Assembly: GCA_029937535.1 (NCBI GenBank)
Contig: JAPYPT010000001.1
Coordinates: forward strand, 5,832 to 69,831
Direction: 5' to 3'
Source: Alphaproteobacteria bacterium
GTDB taxonomy: Bacteria > Pseudomonadota > Alphaproteobacteria > GCA-2731375
DNA: 64,000 nucleotides
The translations under genes were made by a program, and so were the position numbers. Of the stretch, positions 17,843-50,697 are shown piece after piece; within the stretch, counting starts at the first letter, position 1; the number at the start of each line of letters is the position of its first letter. Under the pieces are notes generated by a model. That model worked only from the letters and a program-made list of their open reading frames with translations, was not told the DNA's origin and did not search any database.

Positions 17843-18910
17843 ATGAGCATGAACAGCGAGCCGATCGTGATGGATTTGGAAGCACTTCCAGAGGGCCCGG
17901 CCCTTGATGAAGTGGACTTTAGTGACGACGACGACGCTGAAAGCCGGCGGGACCTATCACATAGTGAATATGATTCATTGGAAGAAGCCGTCATGCAGAC
18001 GGCGCGGGGGCGGACATTCTTGCGGGAACATGCCCGGCGCAACCGGGCCATAGCCTCGGACCTGGTTTTACGGGCGCTGGACGAGCAACGCTCCTATTTG
18101 CGGAGCCAGGAGATAAAGCAGCCAACTGATATTCTGGCGGCCGAGCTGCAAGACATGAGCGACGCCATAAAACATACACGGCGCGATATCGCGGCGATCA
18201 AGCCCGAGGATGGGGCAAACAATCGCATCATGGCGGCGACAGAGGATTTGGACGCCATCGTTACGGCAACGGAGCGGGCCACAAATGATATTCTGACGGC
18301 CGCGGAACGCATTCAGGAAACCTGTGAAACCCTGCGCGAAGATGGTTCGGCGGCCAACCTGCTGGATGCCTTGGAAGAGGACATCACGAACATCTTCCTG
18401 GCGTGCTCGTTCCAGGACATCACTGGCCAACGCACCACCAAGGTGGTCAACGCCCTGCACTATCTGGAGCAGCGGGTCGGCGCGATGATCCAGATTTGGG
18501 GTTCCGAATCCCTGCGCAATGGCGCCGAGAGCGATTTTGGCTCCGTCATGACGGATGAAGACCATCCCGAATCCGGTCTGTTGAATGGCCCGCAATTGGA
18601 AGGCCAGGGCGTGGACCAGGATGACATCGATCAACTTTTGAATGGCGACATCGAACAAGTTAAGGCCGAGGCGGACGTGGCTGTCGAATTCGCCGGTGAA
18701 GACGATCCAACGGATGGCATTGAATTCGATGCCGTGCCGGCGGCCGCGGACGAGACGGCGGATGAGGCGGCGGATGAAGAACCGCCCGCCGATGAGATGT
18801 TTGCCGCGGCCAGCGATGGAGGTGATCTGGAAATCGACGATGAGGACGTATTTGCCGGCCTGTCGGAAGAGGCCGACGCCGATACCATCGACGCCATATT
18901 CGACTCGTAA
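17843..18910 (+). CDS. cheZ: CheZ-like chemotaxis phosphatase with acidic C-terminal tail
   Basis: The block 'SFQDITGQRTTKVVNALHYLEQRV' carries the CheZ catalytic D…Q signature (E. coli 'DFQDLTGQ'). 'LLNGPQ' is also shared with CheZ. The C-terminus is strongly acidic. Start chosen at ATG 17843 (MSMNSEP...). Confidence 0.55.
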   Translation: MSMNSEPIVMDLEALPEGPALDEVDFSDDDDAESRRDLSHSEYDSLEEAVMQTARGRTFLREHARRNRAIASDLVLRALDEQRSYLRSQEIKQPTDILAAELQDMSDAIKHTRRDIAAIKPEDGANNRIMAATEDLDAIVTATERATNDILTAAERIQETCETLREDGSAANLLDALEEDITNIFLACSFQDITGQRTTKVVNALHYLEQRVGAMIQIWGSESLRNGAESDFGSVMTDEDHPESGLLNGPQLEGQGVDQDDIDQLLNGDIEQVKAEADVAVEFAGEDDPTDGIEFDAVPAAADETADEAADEEPPADEMFAAASDGGDLEIDDEDVFAGLSEEADADTIDAIFDS

Positions 18911-18925
18911 ACAAATACCCTAATC

Positions 18926-18940
18926 TGGCGGCCGGCCGCC
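18926..18940. terminator. short GC palindrome (ggcggccggccgcc) between the convergent cheZ-like and glutaredoxin-like genes
   Basis: Perfect 14-nt palindrome in the 37-bp convergent gap. Possible bidirectional terminator, but no clear U-tract. Confidence 0.2.
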
Positions 18941-18947
18941 TTGAACT

Positions 18948-19208
18948 TCAATCAAGACCCAGCAATTCATCTACTTTTTCCGGACCAAGGTCGAGGCCGT
19001 ACAACAGCACGTCACCGACCTGCAGGACCGGGGAGGAGCGGATATTGCGGCTTTCAATGAAAGCGGCGGCGTCCTCGTCCATCATCAGATCCTTGGCCAC
19101 GAAATCCACATCATGGGCCCGCAAATAGCCCTTTAGCTGTTCACAGGGCGGGCAGAACGGCGTGGAATAAACGATTACTGATTTACCGGCCACCCTACGC
19201 GCCCCCAT
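18948..19208 (-). CDS. glutaredoxin-like protein (CPPC active site)
   Basis: 86 aa, 'VIVYSTPFCPPCEQLKGYL' thioredoxin-fold redox motif. 5' end overlaps the upstream selenoprotein ORF by 14 nt. Confidence 0.6.
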   Translation of the reverse strand: MGARRVAGKSVIVYSTPFCPPCEQLKGYLRAHDVDFVAKDLMMDEDAAAFIESRNIRSSPVLQVGDVLLYGLDLGPEKVDELLGLD

Positions 19209-20076
19209 CTTCCTTCAACTTGCGGTACAGGGCCTTTTTTTCCAGCCAGGCATTCTTGATCTCTTCCGTCTGCCAGGGTTGTTCCTGGGTGAAGACCTTT
19301 GTCTTCCAGTCCTCCCCCTTGGACCACTTAAAGGGCGTTTGATTGGTGGTTCGCGGCGCCGTGGCGCTCTCAAATAAATCCAAGGCCATGGCGACAATTT
19401 GGCGCTGCTGATCCTCGTTGCCAGGCTCGCCACACGGATTGCCCAAGGGGAAATCCGTAAACAACAGGCGCGGCACGCCGCATGTCTCGACAATATCGCG
19501 GGCGGCGGCGGCGACAACCGTTGGGATGCCGTTTTCTTCCAGGTAACGGGCGACCAGACTCACGGTCTGGTGGCAAACCGGTCAGACCGGCACGAGGAGT
19601 GCTATATCCACCCCCTCATCACGGCATGCCGCCAGCACCGCCGGTGCATCCGTGCCTAGGGTTTTGTTCTGAGAATAGGCATTGTAAACACCGTAGGCCG
19701 CCGGCGCCAGGCTGCCGATGTGCCCCGACGCCTGCAATTCCTGCAACCGGGTTATGGGGAAATAGCTATTCACGTCGTCCAACGTCGTGGCGTTCATGTC
19801 ATAGCTATGGGTCCGGCTATAAAGTTCCTCCAACGGCGTATCGGTCGCCACGGCGTAAACGTTGGCGGCTTCCCCCCGCTCCAACGGCAGGCGCTGGTCG
19901 TCCCAGGCGCGCGAGGCGATCTCGGATGTGGAGATCAAGGCCAGCCGGCTCTCCGCCACCGGCTTTGTCAGCGGCGTGAAGGGCACATCATCGAATTGCG
20001 CCCATCGATAGGGCTTATCGTAGCCTTGGGTCTTATAATAGGCCGTGGTTTTATCGATATAACGGACGTAACTCAA
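19195..20076 (-). CDS. GrdB/PrdB-family (glycine/betaine/D-proline reductase protein-B-like) putative selenoprotein; in-frame UGA at 19582-19584 read as Sec
   Basis: ORF-track entries 19582..20076 and 19195..19563 are in one frame, separated only by TGA plus 6 sense codons. Read-through gives ...ALLVPV-U-PVCHQTVSLVARYL..., a Sec-x-x-Cys motif. The N-terminal half resembles PrdB/GrdB (PFTPLTKPVAESRLALISTSEIA). A SECIS-like hairpin lies 10 nt 3' of the UGA. Confidence 0.5.
19553..19571 (-). other. SECIS-like stem-loop (ACCAGAC-CGUGA-GUCUGGU) 10 nt downstream of the in-frame UGA
   Basis: Read directly on the minus strand. 7-bp perfect stem with a 5-nt loop, at the spacing expected for a bacterial selenocysteine insertion element. 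Confidence 0.4.
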
Positions 20077-20154
20077 AACGCGGTCCTCCCACTAATACCT
20101 ACCCATTAGAGCACATATGAACCGCGCGGCGCCAGCAGCGGCGTTTGGAAATAC

Positions 20155-22020
20155 TTATTCCGCGGCATCCTTGGCCAGAAACCCACCCGATTGCCGTGAC
20201 CACAATTCGGCGTACAGGCCGCCACGCTTGAGCAGTGTTTCATGATTGCCCTCTTCCACGATACGGCCCCGGTCCATGACGATCAGGCGGTCCATGGCCG
20301 CGATGGTGGAGAGGCGATGGGCAATGGCGATCACGGTCTTGCCGGCCATCAGGGTCTGAAAATTTTCCTGTATCGCCGCTTCCACTTCCGAATCCAGGGC
20401 CGAAGTCGCCTCGTCCAATATCAAGATTGGCGCATCCTTCAAAAGCACACGGGCGATGGCGATACGCTGGCGCTGGCCGCCCGACAGCTTAACGCCGCGT
20501 TCCCCCACATGGGCTTCCAGGCCGCGCCGTCCCTGGCCATCTTCAAGTTCCAGAATGAAATCATCGGCCTTCGCCGCCCGTGCCGCGGCCCAGACCTGCG
20601 CCTCGCTGGCACCGGGTTTGGAATATGCGATATTGTCAAACACCGAACGGTGCAGCAGCGAGGTATCTTGCGTCACCATGGCGATCTGGGCCCGCAGGCT
20701 ATCCTGAGTGACGGTGGAAATGTCCTGACCGTCGATCAGGATGCGCCCGTCTTCCAGGTCGTAGAACCGTAGCAACAGGCTGACCAGGGTGGATTTTCCC
20801 GCACCCGAGCGCCCGACGATGCCGACCTTTTCGCCGGGGCTGATTGCCAGATCCAGGCCGCCGATCACCCCCTGCTCCACATCCGCCCGCGCCTTGCCGT
20901 AGTTGAAATTGATATGGTCGTAGAGGATGCCGCCCGCCTCCACCGCCAACTCGACGGCATCGGGGCTATCGTCAATGGCCCGCTCCCGGGCAATGGTTTC
21001 CACGCCGTCCATGACCACGCCGACATTCTCGAAGACATTGGATACTTCCCACATGATCCATTGAGACATGCCTTGCAGGCGCAAAACCAGCCCCGTGGCG
21101 AGTGCGATGGCGCCGGCACCCACCGCATCCACGTGCCACAGCCAAATCGACATGCCGGCAATGGAGAAAATCAACATGGCATTCAGCAGATTCAGGGTCA
21201 CGGTCAGCAGAGTGGAGAGCCGCATTTGAGCGTGCACCGGGTCCAGGAACGCCTGCATCCCCTCCCGGGCGTAACCGTCTTCATAAGCCGCATGGGCAAA
21301 CATCTTCACGGTGCCAATGTTGGTATAGCTGTCCACCACGCGGCCCGTGACCACCGACCGCGCCTCGGCCTGGGCCTTTGACCAATCCCGCAGCCGGGGC
21401 ACGAAATAGCGCATGGCGACAAGATAACCCATGAGCCAGATGAGCATGGGCGCCGTCAGCCGCAAATCGGAACTGGCGAACAGCACCACGGCGGCGGTGA
21501 AATAGACCACCACATAAAGCAGCACCTCGGTCAGCTTCATGACGATGTCACGCACGGCAAGGGCCGTTTGCATCATCTTCGCGGCCACCCGGCCGGCGAA
21601 ATCGTCCTGATAGAACTCCATGCTCTGGCGCAGCAGATAACGGTGCGCCTGCCAACGCGTGCGCATGGCGAAATTCCCCAGCAGCCCTTGGTGGGAGACC
21701 GCTTCATAAAAGAACTTCAGGACCGGCAGGATCAACAGCACTACCGCCGCCATGATGATCAATTGCCCGCCGTGATCGTCCCAAAATGTCTGCCGCTCGG
21801 AGATCGCCAGCCAGTCCACCAACCGGCCAAGAAAGGCGAACAGGGTCACTTCCAACAACGCGATCACGGTTGCGAACAGGGCCGAGGTTGCCAGCAGACG
21901 CCAAAACGGCTTGGCGTAATGCAGGGTAAAGGCGACAAGGGTTGCGGGTGGCATTTCCGGCTGCTCGATGGGCAGCGGATCGGTCACTCTTTCCAACCAG
22001 CCAAAAAATCTGCTGATCAC
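20155..22020 (-). CDS. ABC transporter, fused permease/ATP-binding protein (MsbA-like exporter)
   Basis: 6-TM domain followed by an NBD with Walker A GRSGAGKST, LSGGQRQR and a Walker B DEATSALD. Start placed at GTG 22020 (VISRFFGWLERV...) with GGAGAG 9 nt upstream. The ORF-track start at 22137 would overlap the upstream gene. Confidence 0.7.
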   Translation of the reverse strand: MISRFFGWLERVTDPLPIEQPEMPPATLVAFTLHYAKPFWRLLATSALFATVIALLEVTLFAFLGRLVDWLAISERQTFWDDHGGQLIIMAAVVLLILPVLKFFYEAVSHQGLLGNFAMRTRWQAHRYLLRQSMEFYQDDFAGRVAAKMMQTALAVRDIVMKLTEVLLYVVVYFTAAVVLFASSDLRLTAPMLIWLMGYLVAMRYFVPRLRDWSKAQAEARSVVTGRVVDSYTNIGTVKMFAHAAYEDGYAREGMQAFLDPVHAQMRLSTLLTVTLNLLNAMLIFSIAGMSIWLWHVDAVGAGAIALATGLVLRLQGMSQWIMWEVSNVFENVGVVMDGVETIARERAIDDSPDAVELAVEAGGILYDHINFNYGKARADVEQGVIGGLDLAISPGEKVGIVGRSGAGKSTLVSLLLRFYDLEDGRILIDGQDISTVTQDSLRAQIAMVTQDTSLLHRSVFDNIAYSKPGASEAQVWAAARAAKADDFILELEDGQGRRGLEAHVGERGVKLSGGQRQRIAIARVLLKDAPILILDEATSALDSEVEAAIQENFQTLMAGKTVIAIAHRLSTIAAMDRLIVMDRGRIVEEGNHETLLKRGGLYAELWSRQSGGFLAKDAAE

Positions 22021-22105: not shown

Positions 22106-22750
22106 CTAGTCCTCGGCCCCCGCCGCCACGCCGGCATTGAAGCGGGTATCGGCCTGGCGGAACACCTTTCGGGTGTTATCCATGTCCCAGGGCTCCTCGA
22201 TCAGGGTTTCGTGGTCCCATTGGCTGCGCGGCCGCGGTGGATTAAAGAAATCGCCGCCATAGACATGCAGGGCCGGCGTCAGCTTACGGATCGGATTGGA
22301 CACGGAATGCACGATGTCGGGGCCCATGGTCACGGCCTGCCCGACGCCAAGACTGTCCGCGCCCGCGGCCTCCAACGCCGGACCATCGGGGTCATCCAGA
22401 CGGCGCCAAAACATATTATCCTCCCGCCCGCCATAAATACCGATGACCGCGAACATATTATGGTTGTGGGGCAGCAGGGTCATGTAGGGCGCCCAAACAA
22501 AGTTAATCACGGTCAGCTCGGCCGACTGATACAGGGGATAGACACCCGCCTGTTCGGGCTCCCCCAATTCGGCGATGATGGCGGAGGGATCTGCAACCGC
22601 TTCCAGCACGGCTTCGCGAATGGCCTTCTGTCCCTCGCCAACGACGGATTTACAGGTTTCAATAAAGCGATCCTTCTGAAACACCCAAGCATCCTTCCAA
22701 ATCTGAACAAGGCGGATTAAGCGCCGAATCAAGATATTCAGCTTAACCAT
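22106..22750 (-). CDS. cupin-fold (double-stranded beta-helix) protein of unknown function
   Basis: ATG at 22750 preceded by GGAGAGGG. His-rich 'LPHNHNMFAVIGIYGG' motif typical of metal-binding cupins. Confidence 0.4.
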   Translation of the reverse strand: MVKLNILIRRLIRLVQIWKDAWVFQKDRFIETCKSVVGEGQKAIREAVLEAVADPSAIIAELGEPEQAGVYPLYQSAELTVINFVWAPYMTLLPHNHNMFAVIGIYGGREDNMFWRRLDDPDGPALEAAGADSLGVGQAVTMGPDIVHSVSNPIRKLTPALHVYGGDFFNPPRPRSQWDHETLIEEPWDMDNTRKVFRQADTRFNAGVAAGAED

Positions 22751-48677: not shown

Positions 48678-49670
48678 ATGGCCGTCAATGATTTTGCCTG
48701 CCATTTGGACGTTTTCGAGGGCATGGAGCCATTTTCCGGATTTGTGGAAAATGGCTTTCTGGTTGACTTCGTCGGCCAGCGCACGGATGCGACGTTCCGT
48801 TCCATCTGGGGTGTCGATCCCCATGCCACGGGTGGCCGTGAAATGGCGACCGCCATGCCGGCGCTGTCGGACGGCGAAGACTGGTTTGAATTCTATAACT
48901 GGGTGGCGGCGGCGAGAGAAGCGCGCGGATCTTATGTGATGATGACCCTGGGATCTTGTTATGGCGCCCAGGCGGTGGGCAGTTATCTTGCCCTCCAAGC
49001 CTTGAACCCCATGCCGGCAAAGCTGGTCGCCGTGGACGGCGTGCCGGAAAATATGGAGATGACCCGCAAGCAGTTTCGCGACAACGGCATCAACCCGAAC
49101 GACCATTGGATGATCGAGGCGGCCATGAGCGGCGATAACAAGCCGGTGCTGTTTCCCATCGGCGCGCCGGGCTCGGGCACGCAGAACTGCGTTTTGACCA
49201 ATAGCGGCGCCAACCGCATGGCGATTCTTGATCTGGCCAAAAAAGCCGGCGCCACGGAACGGCTGGCCCAAAGCCTGCTGATGCGCAACAGCACCGACCT
49301 GACCATCGATCTGGCGCCGGGCACGGAATATGATTTCTCGGGCGAGATTACCTTTGTCTCCGCCCTGACCTTGATGGATTTGCTGGCGCCCTTCGAACGG
49401 GTGGATTTCGTGGAAGCCGACCTGCAGCAATCGGAAAGCGTGGTCTTTCCGCCGGCGATGGATGTTCTGACCAAGAAAGTCCGCCGCGTTCTGTTGGGCA
49501 CGCACGGGCAAAGCACCCACGACCGAATGGAAAAATTGTTCCGCGATCGCGGCTGGGACATCGTTTTCAGTTACGCACCGGAGCAAACCTACGAAACACC
49601 CCATGCCACGTTCGAGATGAACGACGGCGTCATCACCGCCGTCAATCCGGCCGTGGCCTACCGCAGTTGA
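48678..49670 (+). CDS. hypothetical protein, tandem paralog A (FkbM-family methyltransferase-like)
   Basis: 330 aa. 'LVAVDGVPENMEMTRKQFRDNGI' and 'VDFVEADLQQSESVVF' resemble FkbM-family blocks (EPnpenfelL; idllKiDvEGaE). Low confidence. Confidence 0.35.
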   Translation: MAVNDFACHLDVFEGMEPFSGFVENGFLVDFVGQRTDATFRSIWGVDPHATGGREMATAMPALSDGEDWFEFYNWVAAAREARGSYVMMTLGSCYGAQAVGSYLALQALNPMPAKLVAVDGVPENMEMTRKQFRDNGINPNDHWMIEAAMSGDNKPVLFPIGAPGSGTQNCVLTNSGANRMAILDLAKKAGATERLAQSLLMRNSTDLTIDLAPGTEYDFSGEITFVSALTLMDLLAPFERVDFVEADLQQSESVVFPPAMDVLTKKVRRVLLGTHGQSTHDRMEKLFRDRGWDIVFSYAPEQTYETPHATFEMNDGVITAVNPAVAYRS

Positions 49671-49704: not shown

Positions 49705-50697
49705 ATGGCAGTCAATGACCTGACACCTTTTCTGGACACTTTCGATGGCATGGAGCCGTTTGCGGGCTATGTGGACAAGGGATTTTTTGTCGATTTCATC
49801 GGCCAGCGGACAGACGCCAACTTCAGGGTGATTTGGGGCGCCGAACCGGACAAAGCGGGCGATTGCCAGACCATGACCCGCCTGCCAAGCCTGTCCGATG
49901 GCGAAGGCTGGTTTGAAACCTTCAACTGGGTCGCGGCCGCCCGGGAAGCCCGCGGTTCCTATACCATGATGACCCTGGGTTCATGCTACGGCGGCCAGGC
50001 GGTCGGAAGCTATCTGACCCTGCGGGCCCTGAACCCCATGCCGGCCATGCTGGTGGCGGTCGACGGGGTGCCGGAAAACATGGAAATGACCCGCAAACAG
50101 TTTCGCAACAACGGCATCGATCCCAACGAACATTGGCTGATCGATGCAGCCATGAGCGCCAACAACGACCCCGTGCTCTTTCCCATTGGAGCGCCTGGAC
50201 TGGGCGCACAAAGTTGCACGCAGTCCAACAGCCGCGCGGCCCGCATGACGATCCTGGACATGGCCAAGCACAACGGCACCCTGGAACATCTGGCGCAAAG
50301 CCTGTTGCTGCGCAACAGCACCGGCGTGACCGTCAATTTGGAAGAAGGCACGGATTTCGAAGCCCCGGCCGAGATCTCCTTTGTCTCGGCCGTGACCTTG
50401 AAAGACCTGCTGACACCCTTTGCCAGGGTCGACTATGTGGAAGCGGATTTGCAGGAATCGGAAGGACTGGTGTTCCCGCCCGCCATGGATCTGCTCACCA
50501 AAAAGGTACGGCGGGTCCATTTGGGCACCCACAGCGACCTGACCCACGAAGTTTTGGAAGGACAATTCCGCGAGCGCGGCTGGGATATATTGTTCAGTTA
50601 CAAACCACGGCAAACCTATGAGACGCCCCACGCCACGTTCGAGATGAGCGACGGTGTCCTGACAGCCGTCAATCCGGCCATGGCCTACGCCAGTTGA
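49705..50697 (+). CDS. hypothetical protein, tandem paralog B (about 70% aa identity to A)
   Basis: Exactly 330 aa and co-linear with paralog A, with the same candidate motifs (VDYVEADLQESEGLVF). Confidence 0.35.
   Translation: MAVNDLTPFLDTFDGMEPFAGYVDKGFFVDFIGQRTDANFRVIWGAEPDKAGDCQTMTRLPSLSDGEGWFETFNWVAAAREARGSYTMMTLGSCYGGQAVGSYLTLRALNPMPAMLVAVDGVPENMEMTRKQFRNNGIDPNEHWLIDAAMSANNDPVLFPIGAPGLGAQSCTQSNSRAARMTILDMAKHNGTLEHLAQSLLLRNSTGVTVNLEEGTDFEAPAEISFVSAVTLKDLLTPFARVDYVEADLQESEGLVFPPAMDLLTKKVRRVHLGTHSDLTHEVLEGQFRERGWDILFSYKPRQTYETPHATFEMSDGVLTAVNPAMAYAS

Follow-up and report, generated by a model that had tools for sequence, protein, structure and literature searches.

A PrdB-like selenoprotein gene and its glutaredoxin-like neighbour in an alphaproteobacterium

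Introduction

The closest described relatives of the gene reported here are the protein B components of D-proline reductase (PrdB of Clostridium sticklandii and C. difficile) and of the glycine- and betaine-type reductases (GrdB, GrdF and GrdH; PF07355, TIGR01917/01918). A 2026 review gives their redox motifs as UxxC for PrdB and UxxCxxC for GrdB, where U is selenocysteine (Sec). Proteins under the name PrdB have also been recorded in quantity outside clostridia. In a 2005 survey of the Sargasso Sea (PMC1088965), "Proline reductase PrdB, UxxC" is the third most abundant selenoprotein family, with 42 Sec-containing sequences and one containing cysteine (Cys). The 2008 Global Ocean Sampling survey (PMC2398784) counts 235 Sec and 110 Cys sequences of PrdB, and a 2006 study reported "proline reductase" selenoproteins in Anaeromyxobacter and Geobacter uraniireducens (PMC1794560). 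Here, we analyze a gene of this kind in a 64,000-nucleotide stretch of an alphaproteobacterial contig (JAPYPT010000001.1, positions 5,832 to 69,831, forward strand), hereafter the window. A preliminary description of the window had proposed that two open reading frames (ORFs) separated by UGA are a single GrdB/PrdB-like selenoprotein gene, followed by a hairpin resembling a bacterial selenocysteine insertion sequence (SECIS) and paired with a glutaredoxin.

The window gene is one more member of a known selenoprotein family. Its family shares with the marine PrdB family the UxxC motif, an affinity to pfam07355, a large excess of Sec over Cys forms in aquatic metagenomes, and non-clostridial hosts; the two are equated here from these descriptions, not from direct sequence comparison. 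Members of the window family have already been named PrdB or GrdB-family proteins by the Joint Genome Institute and NCBI. Because the family has long been counted in marine surveys, finding such a PrdB-like gene outside clostridia is to be expected, and the novelty that the preliminary description implied for it was overstated: since 2005-2008 the family has been on record as a prominent selenoprotein family of non-clostridial bacteria. Where our reading differs is in function. The marine surveys (PMC1088965, PMC2398784) treat the family as a proline reductase, a common name that is probably a misnomer. Their accessible text mentions neither a missing PrdA nor a pairing with a glutaredoxin, and the operon list of the 2026 review is without the glutaredoxin pairing. 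A selenoprotein family that ranks among the most abundant in bacteria lacks the partner that defines its named function and has a conserved redoxin partner in its place.

Reading frame and coordinates

The features under study lie on the minus strand of the window:

19195..20076, minus strand: PrdB-like selenoprotein gene, 293 codons through one UGA; TTG start at 20076..20074, TAG stop at 19197..19195.
20085..20090, minus strand: Shine-Dalgarno-like GGGAGG, 8 nt 5' of the TTG start, read off the sequence.
19582..19584, minus strand: in-frame UGA, assigned as the Sec codon of U165, the first residue of U-P-V-C; a conserved TGA/Cys site.
19550..19574, minus strand: predicted SECIS hairpin; core stem of 7 bp (19571..19565 with 19559..19553), apical loop CGUGA (19564..19560), optional two-pair extension.
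18948..19208, minus strand: glutaredoxin-like partner gene with the site C-P-P-C; Pfam Glutaredoxin (PF00462), 42.7 bits against a threshold of 22.9.

Minus-strand translation of the TTG-started frame gave 164 codons up to the TGA at 19584..19582 and 128 more, in frame, to the TAG at 19197..19195. The two ORFs of the preliminary description, said to share one frame and to be parted by TGA and six codons, held at every coordinate on re-reading. The six sense codons are CCG GTT TGC CAC CAG ACC, and they end at the GTG at 19563, the restart point of a mechanical ORF list. Translation of 20076..19195 likewise reproduced the proposed read-through product of 293 residues with LLVPV-U-PVCHQT around the TGA. 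The U165-spanning peptide reads LLVPV-U-PVCHQTVSLVAR, and a longer stretch over the TGA reads LLVPV-U-PVCHQTVSLVARYLEENGIPTV. Homologs of the window protein start at an equivalent M-x-x-V-R-Y-I-D-K. A promoter and terminator scan of 18800-20300 found nothing beyond shuffled expectation. Public gene calls split the gene in two at the TGA, and the TGA-split gene is present on six independent contigs of the same strain.

ORF pairs split by TGA are frequent in this GC-rich window, so the split alone proves nothing. Specifically, 35 same-frame pairs, including the PrdB-like one, passed a filter on GC content at third codon positions. Only the PrdB-like pair had a family match spanning the TGA (TIGR04483, residues 33-251) together with conservation across species. 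The other 34 were rejected as selenoproteins, all of them being Arg/Pro/Ser-rich shadow frames over real genes. TGA-split pairs by themselves are a poor selenoprotein signal in GC-rich DNA.

Conservation of the UGA codon

A search of a 5.8-billion-protein collection returned 1379 homologs of the read-through protein. In all 91 full-length homologs with the motif, Cys stood at the U position (PV-C-PVC-HQT), and some 30 distinct cluster representatives, with 68-84% identity to the query, terminated exactly at ...L(V/T)PV. At the DNA level, the codon at the Sec site was TGA in 76 and TGC in 4 of 80 loci from species-representative genomes. When 80 metagenome loci were added to the genome set, it was TGA in 154 of 159 classified loci and TGC or TGT in the remaining five; these proportions are skewed by locus ranking and are not population estimates. 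The hosts of related loci are Alpha-, Beta-, Gamma- and Deltaproteobacteria, Myxococcota, Chloroflexi, Actinomycetota, Rokubacteria/Methylomirabilota, Binatia and Spirochaetes. The preliminary description had named a frame disruption among orthologs as grounds for abandoning the Sec reading; none was seen, and either TGA or Cys was kept at the site.

The nearest named relative is a metagenome-assembled genome of Rhodospirillaceae, whose protein is 85% identical. In comparisons with the four closest relatives, codon differences 3' of the UGA were synonymous-only versus amino-acid-changing in ratios of 32:14, 41:22, 38:24 and 45:22, a synonymous excess at least as strong as that 5' of the UGA. 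The half encoded after the TGA is under purifying selection. On this comparative evidence (a family match that spans the TGA, alternation of TGA with Cys codons, conservation of the TGA across phyla and selection on the downstream half), the UGA at 19584..19582 is a genuine Sec codon.

Relationship to PrdB and GrdB

The read-through protein matched TIGR04483 (PrdB) with 112.8 bits over residues 33-251, across the UGA; the equivalog cutoff of 300 was not reached. Pfam GRDB (PF07355) scored 22.2 bits against a cutoff of 22, over residues 12-141 only. The GrdB model TIGR01917 (33.5 versus 602 bits) and the broader subfamily model TIGR01918 (33.2 versus 65.45 bits) both fell below their cutoffs.

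For a direct comparison with PrdB, a presumed C. difficile reference sequence was used only after it had scored 433 bits over the full TIGR04483 model (cutoff 300). The window protein was 32% identical to it over 201 residues, with an hhalign probability of 99.7%. U165 fell on the first position of PrdB's sole CxxC-type motif (LTAG-U-GTCH in PrdB, LVPV-U-PVCH in the window). The check suggested in the preliminary description, whether the U coincides with the catalytic Sec of the family, thus came out in favour of the Sec of PrdB's UxxC. The window motif, UPVCHQT, has no second downstream Cys; for this reason the protein is PrdB-like, not GrdB-like.

The window protein and PrdB share approximately 200 homologous residues and the aligned Sec in U-x-x-C-H; after the UxxC, both have a helix and then an (E)xGIPT(V/I) strand. 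They differ in that the window protein has about 30 extra N-terminal and 40 extra C-terminal residues, and in that its gene has no prdA, prdC or prdDEF nearby, having a glutaredoxin-like neighbour instead. The hosts of the window family (Alpha-, Beta- and Gammaproteobacteria, Rokubacteria and others) are, moreover, not Stickland fermenters. With respect to GrdB, GrdF and GrdH, which have ~430 residues, the window protein corresponds to the C-terminal half, Sec region included (profile positions ~195-425). However, it has only 293 residues, carries U-x-x-C-H-Q rather than U-x-x-C-x-x-C, misses all NCBIfam cutoffs, and is encoded without grdA, grdE/I or grdC/D. The GrdB/PrdB resemblance noted earlier therefore stands as a family likeness, borne out by TIGR04483, but is not confined to the N-terminal half: the whole protein corresponds to PrdB and to the C-terminal half of GrdB.

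Approximately 37 residues are invariant in the family and are spread far past the redox motif; they include Y6, Y13, Y14, Y23, W25, D93, D101, R177, E180, D194, E197 and R203. An AlphaFold2 model was made of P0001, the closest natural Cys form, which is 66% identical to the window protein (predicted local distance difference test score, 88.9; predicted template-modelling score, 0.89). In this model, C165-x-x-C168 lies between strand 158-162 and the N-terminus of helix 166-181, in a Rossmann-like core. A sequence search of the PDB with the family profile gave nothing below E = 0.3, leaving no PrdB/GrdB structure for comparison, and no solved structure was specifically related by fold to the P0001 model.

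The SECIS hairpin

PMC1088965 describes the bacterial SECIS as a stem-loop that follows the UGA immediately and has a G in its small apical loop. The window hairpin agrees with this description, as an immediate stem-loop with a small, G-containing loop. It has the sequence ACCAGAC-CGUGA-GUCUGGU at 19571..19553, begins 10 nt after the UGA, and is present in the minimum-energy fold of the region. It is extendable to 19574..19550 through a 1x1 internal loop and two G-C pairs. The GTG "start" of the mechanical downstream ORF sits inside its loop.

The hairpin lies within a conserved peptide, H-Q-T-V-S-L-V, so that the pairing alone might simply follow from the amino acids encoded; the two possibilities can be told apart at synonymous sites. 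Codons were therefore tabulated for 148 distinct Sec forms and five Cys-form DNA sequences, numbered from the Sec site:

Codon +5, Gln: CAG 145 in Sec forms; CAG 5 in Cys forms.
Codon +6, Thr: ACC 140 in Sec forms; ACC 4 and ACG 1 in Cys forms.
Codon +7, Val in Sec forms and Ile in Cys forms: GTG 141 and GTC 7 in Sec forms; ATC 5 in Cys forms.
Codon +8, Ser: AGT 135 and GGT 9 (stem bases kept) in Sec forms; AGC 4 and TCC 1 in Cys forms.
Codon +9, Leu: CTG 142 in Sec forms; CTG 4 and CTC 1 in Cys forms.

At the flanking four-fold degenerate codons, Pro+1, Val+2 and Arg+12, all synonyms were used freely in Sec forms. Residue +7 was Val in every Sec form, compared with Ile 63, Val 17, Thr 5, Ala 3, Met 2 and Leu 1 among the 91 Cys-form proteins. 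Over 76 distinct sequences, 95.7% of the cells of the 7-bp stem were paired, versus 20-32% when the 3' arm was slid. One pair, at alignment columns 30-46, covaried, namely base 3 of the His+4 codon with base 1 of codon +10 (C-G in 56 sequences, U-A in 14), with a score matched by none of 500 shuffles. Most stem pairs are invariant and hence uninformative for covariation, and the aligned sequences are related by descent.

Folding energy was less telling. The z-score of the single-sequence fold was an unremarkable -1.48. A metagenome scan seeded with a Cys form found almost exclusively TGA forms, and the Cys-form DNA control stays at five sequences. No Rfam SECIS family was matched in the whole window at the gathering threshold, and 19480-19640 at E <= 10 gave chance snoRNA matches only; this null is not informative for bacterial elements. 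As judged from codon and pair conservation rather than from stability, the hairpin is under RNA-level constraint. The SECIS-like hairpin of the preliminary description, with 7 bp, a 5-nt loop and a start 10 nt past the UGA, thus keeps its coordinates and gains frozen synonymous sites and a covarying pair.

The locus of P0001 (L169:711-1592) is a Cys form with TGT that retains the complete Sec-form hairpin, CAC CAG ACC GTG AGT CTG GTT, which suggests either that the change from Sec to Cys is very recent or that a base was miscalled. Immediately upstream, gene 286-615 encodes an Rdx/SelW-like protein (PF10262).

The glutaredoxin-like partner

The partner has the active-site context V-Y-S-T-P-F-C-P-P-C. 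It resembles the glutaredoxin-like UxxC selenoproteins and the small redoxins YruB and NrdH in its size (~81 residues), its PF00462 fold and its C-x-P-C site. It differs from the YruB, NrdH and Uxx-star families in scoring below their curated NCBIfam cutoffs (YruB, 53 versus 88.6; NrdH, 26 versus 85.8); those of Uxx-star and Grx3 were not reached either. An alternative in-frame GTG at 19193, 1 nt past the PrdB-like stop, gives a product of 81 residues, with length and spacing as in the four closest orthologs. The gene therefore probably starts there, as far as the sequence indicates, rather than at the ATG at 19208. Of the earlier claim that a CPPC glutaredoxin gene overlaps the PrdB-like gene by 14 nt, the tight coupling and the CPPC site stand; the overlap holds only with the ATG at 19208 and is probably not real.

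When ORFs within 6 kb were clustered across 81 loci, the glutaredoxin-like gene was the one conserved neighbour. Of the 34 loci with the greatest similarity to the window, 26 had it directly 3', among them all four Cys-form loci. Over all loci, it was directly downstream in 60 of 163, and adjacent in 58 of the 147 with sufficient flanking DNA. Adjacency followed a C-terminal motif of the PrdB-like protein, W-x3-K-x2-Y-[RK]: of the 75 loci carrying the motif, 56 had the gene adjacent, compared with 2 of the 72 lacking it, a correlation confounded by shared ancestry. The length of the C-terminal tail did not predict adjacency (p = 0.13). The proposed pairing with a CPPC glutaredoxin is, therefore, conserved synteny in the clade of the window (56/75 motif-bearing loci).

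The active site of the partner is C-x-P-C, except in six loci of Rokubacteria/Methylomirabilota type (L024, L032, L036, L039, L122 and L125), in which an in-frame TGA at the first Cys gives U-x-P-C (TP[LF]-U-[RG]PC-E). All six carry an invariant CCUGCGGUCCGCAGG element approximately 27 nt 3' of this TGA. On this sequence evidence, the six would be two-selenoprotein operons. The operon list of the 2026 review contains no such PrdB-like/glutaredoxin operon.

The partners that define the known reductases were missing. No match to PrdA/GrdE (PF09338), GrdA (PF04723) or GrdC/D was found anywhere in the 64-kb window, for which Pfam assignments were taken from public gene calls (~9.6-30 kb) and from our own scans of the remainder, the source being metagenome contigs. 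The earlier statement that GrdA, GrdC and GrdE partners are lacking in the window is borne out by these domain scans and extends to PrdA. In none of the 81 loci was a PrdA/GrdE-like cluster present within about 6-8 kb.

Proposed function and alternatives

We consider it likely that the gene product is a true selenoprotein of 293 residues, that it belongs to an orphan clade within the GrdB/PrdB superfamily, and that it works with the glutaredoxin-like protein and is not a D-proline or glycine reductase. From established bacterial decoding, SelB with Sec-tRNA(Sec) would bind the hairpin (apical loop 17 nt past the UGA), and Sec would be inserted in place of termination. The ensuing chemistry is modelled on that of the Prd and Grd systems and on redoxin biology. 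Sec165 would be the nucleophile that attacks the substrate or oxidant, and Cys168 would resolve the Sec165 adduct to yield a selenenylsulfide. The C-P-P-C glutaredoxin-like protein, tightly linked and probably translationally coupled, would then re-reduce the selenenylsulfide, taking the part played by PrdC/NADH or thioredoxin in clostridial systems.

The enzyme seems to do without a pyruvoyl subunit encoded beside it. For protein B systems of the betaine type, a non-proprotein partner is reported, which would mean that the pyruvoyl group is not universal in the GrdB/PrdB superfamily. A family III coenzyme A (CoA)-transferase, recurrent near the gene in related loci, weakly hints at a small carboxylic acid or acyl-CoA as the substrate. 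A further reading, which we judge somewhat less likely than not, is a self-contained, two-protein selenol/thiol reductase that would operate with no pyruvoyl subunit in aerobic or facultative hosts on a non-amino-acid substrate, possibly a CoA-ester carboxylate. If true, the PrdB-like/glutaredoxin system would be a non-Stickland role for the GrdB/PrdB family, in which both partners are selenoproteins in Rokubacteria/Methylomirabilota.

Several observations weigh against an orphan selenoprotein working with a glutaredoxin. Pfam and tRNA scans of the 64-kb window found no selA, selB, selC or selD; ARAGORN found neither tRNA-Sec nor any other tRNA in the window, which also holds no plausible second TGA-split selenoprotein gene able to vouch for Sec decoding. 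The predicted hairpin energy does not separate Sec from Cys forms (-11.4 versus -11.5 kcal/mol, with five Cys-form DNA sequences). The PrdB reference is only presumed to be the C. difficile sequence, although it passed the curated TIGR04483 model. The glutaredoxin-like gene is not universal, being directly 3' in only 1 of the 47 more distant loci, and the redox link between the two proteins is drawn from synteny only. A pyruvoyl partner may be encoded elsewhere in the genome. Finally, the literature searched, whose coverage was incomplete, held no experimental or functional work on any member of the clade, a provisional negative. Papers on fluoroacetate (Synergistota) and on the mlp cluster were considered as studies of the clade and rejected, as they concern other systems.

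Of the alternatives, the one that survives best, although we judge it unlikely, is that the protein is a general thiol/selenol redox protein, such as a disulfide, peroxide or similar reductase in a glutaredoxin-linked antioxidant relay, rather than a substrate-specific C-X reductase. The 2006 survey flags the "proline reductase" family as homologous to thiol-based oxidoreductases (PMC1794560), a redoxin is the sole conserved partner, a pyruvoyl subunit is missing, and the UxxC position in the P0001 model sits at the N-terminus of a helix, as in redoxins. However, the ~37 invariant residues lie well outside the redox motif and many are aromatic or charged, which suggests a defined ligand site. 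The gene also recurs beside catabolic genes, with a family III CoA-transferase nearby in 26 of 163 loci and acyl-CoA dehydrogenase and enoyl-CoA hydratase among the recurrent neighbours, and it is clearly homologous to substrate-specific protein B components.

It is more doubtful still that the protein is the PrdB subunit of a true D-proline reductase, or the equivalent in a glycine- or betaine-type enzyme, with PrdA/GrdE and the electron-transfer proteins encoded elsewhere and the glutaredoxin incidental. The best family match is indeed TIGR04483, the U aligns with the Sec of PrdB, surveys and annotation pipelines name the family PrdB, and only 64 kb of the genome are visible. These points are outweighed by the score of 112.8 bits against an equivalog cutoff of 300, by N- and C-terminal extensions that PrdB does not have, and by the lack of a PrdA/GrdE-like cluster in the window or beside the 81 loci. 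In addition, adjacency of the glutaredoxin-like gene is conserved, and the active site of that protein itself switches between Sec and Cys.

That the TGA is a true stop, in a pseudogene, through a sequencing error or between two genes of 164 and 122 residues, would fit the gene callers' split and the lack of Sec machinery in the window, but this is effectively refuted by a split at the identical codon in 154 loci of many phyla, the TGA on six same-strain contigs, continuous Cys forms, purifying selection on the downstream half, a downstream GTG "start" within the hairpin loop, and synonymous sites frozen in TGA forms only.

The orphan-selenoprotein reading bears on annotation: gene callers yield two hypothetical proteins from this gene, and the proline or glycine reductase label given by pipelines is unsupported here.

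Genomic neighbourhood

The Pfam content of the window comprises housekeeping and catabolic genes only. The ABC exporter of the window recurs in 7 of 163 loci, and CheZ solely in near-identical relatives. In Bordetella bronchiseptica (L167/L168; e.g., CP019934.1, 6001-8365), a Cys-form PrdB-like gene, a glutaredoxin-like gene and a family III CoA-transferase gene follow one another with 4-nt overlaps. The presence of this Cys-form, three-gene operon in a cultivable organism makes the function approachable experimentally without Sec insertion. The unit stands next to the genes for pertussis toxin (ptx) and type IV secretion, and its surroundings also encode another CoA-transferase, a rhodanese and TctC-type binding proteins.

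In five alphaproteobacterial loci (L019, L020, L029, L033 and L066), a 344-residue O-methyltransferase (PF00891 plus a dimerisation domain) takes the place of the glutaredoxin directly 3' of the PrdB-like gene. In another alphaproteobacterial locus, L014, the O-methyltransferase is nearby on the opposite strand.

For a 214-residue ORF at 22106-22750 of the window (minus strand), Pfam gave no match up to E <= 10. The ORF is homologous to a 214-residue protein encoded near the Bordetella operon (31% identity over 139 residues, E = 5e-13), with which it shares a P-H-x-H ... H pattern that looks cupin-like. Homologs occur in 6 of 163 loci, from Alpha- and Betaproteobacteria and Rokubacteria.

Elsewhere in the window, two adjacent and clearly paralogous ORFs of 330 residues lie at 48678-49670 and 49705-50697 (plus strand). 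Both start with MAVND...F(E/D)GMEPF, and for the first, Pfam gave no match at E <= 1e-5.

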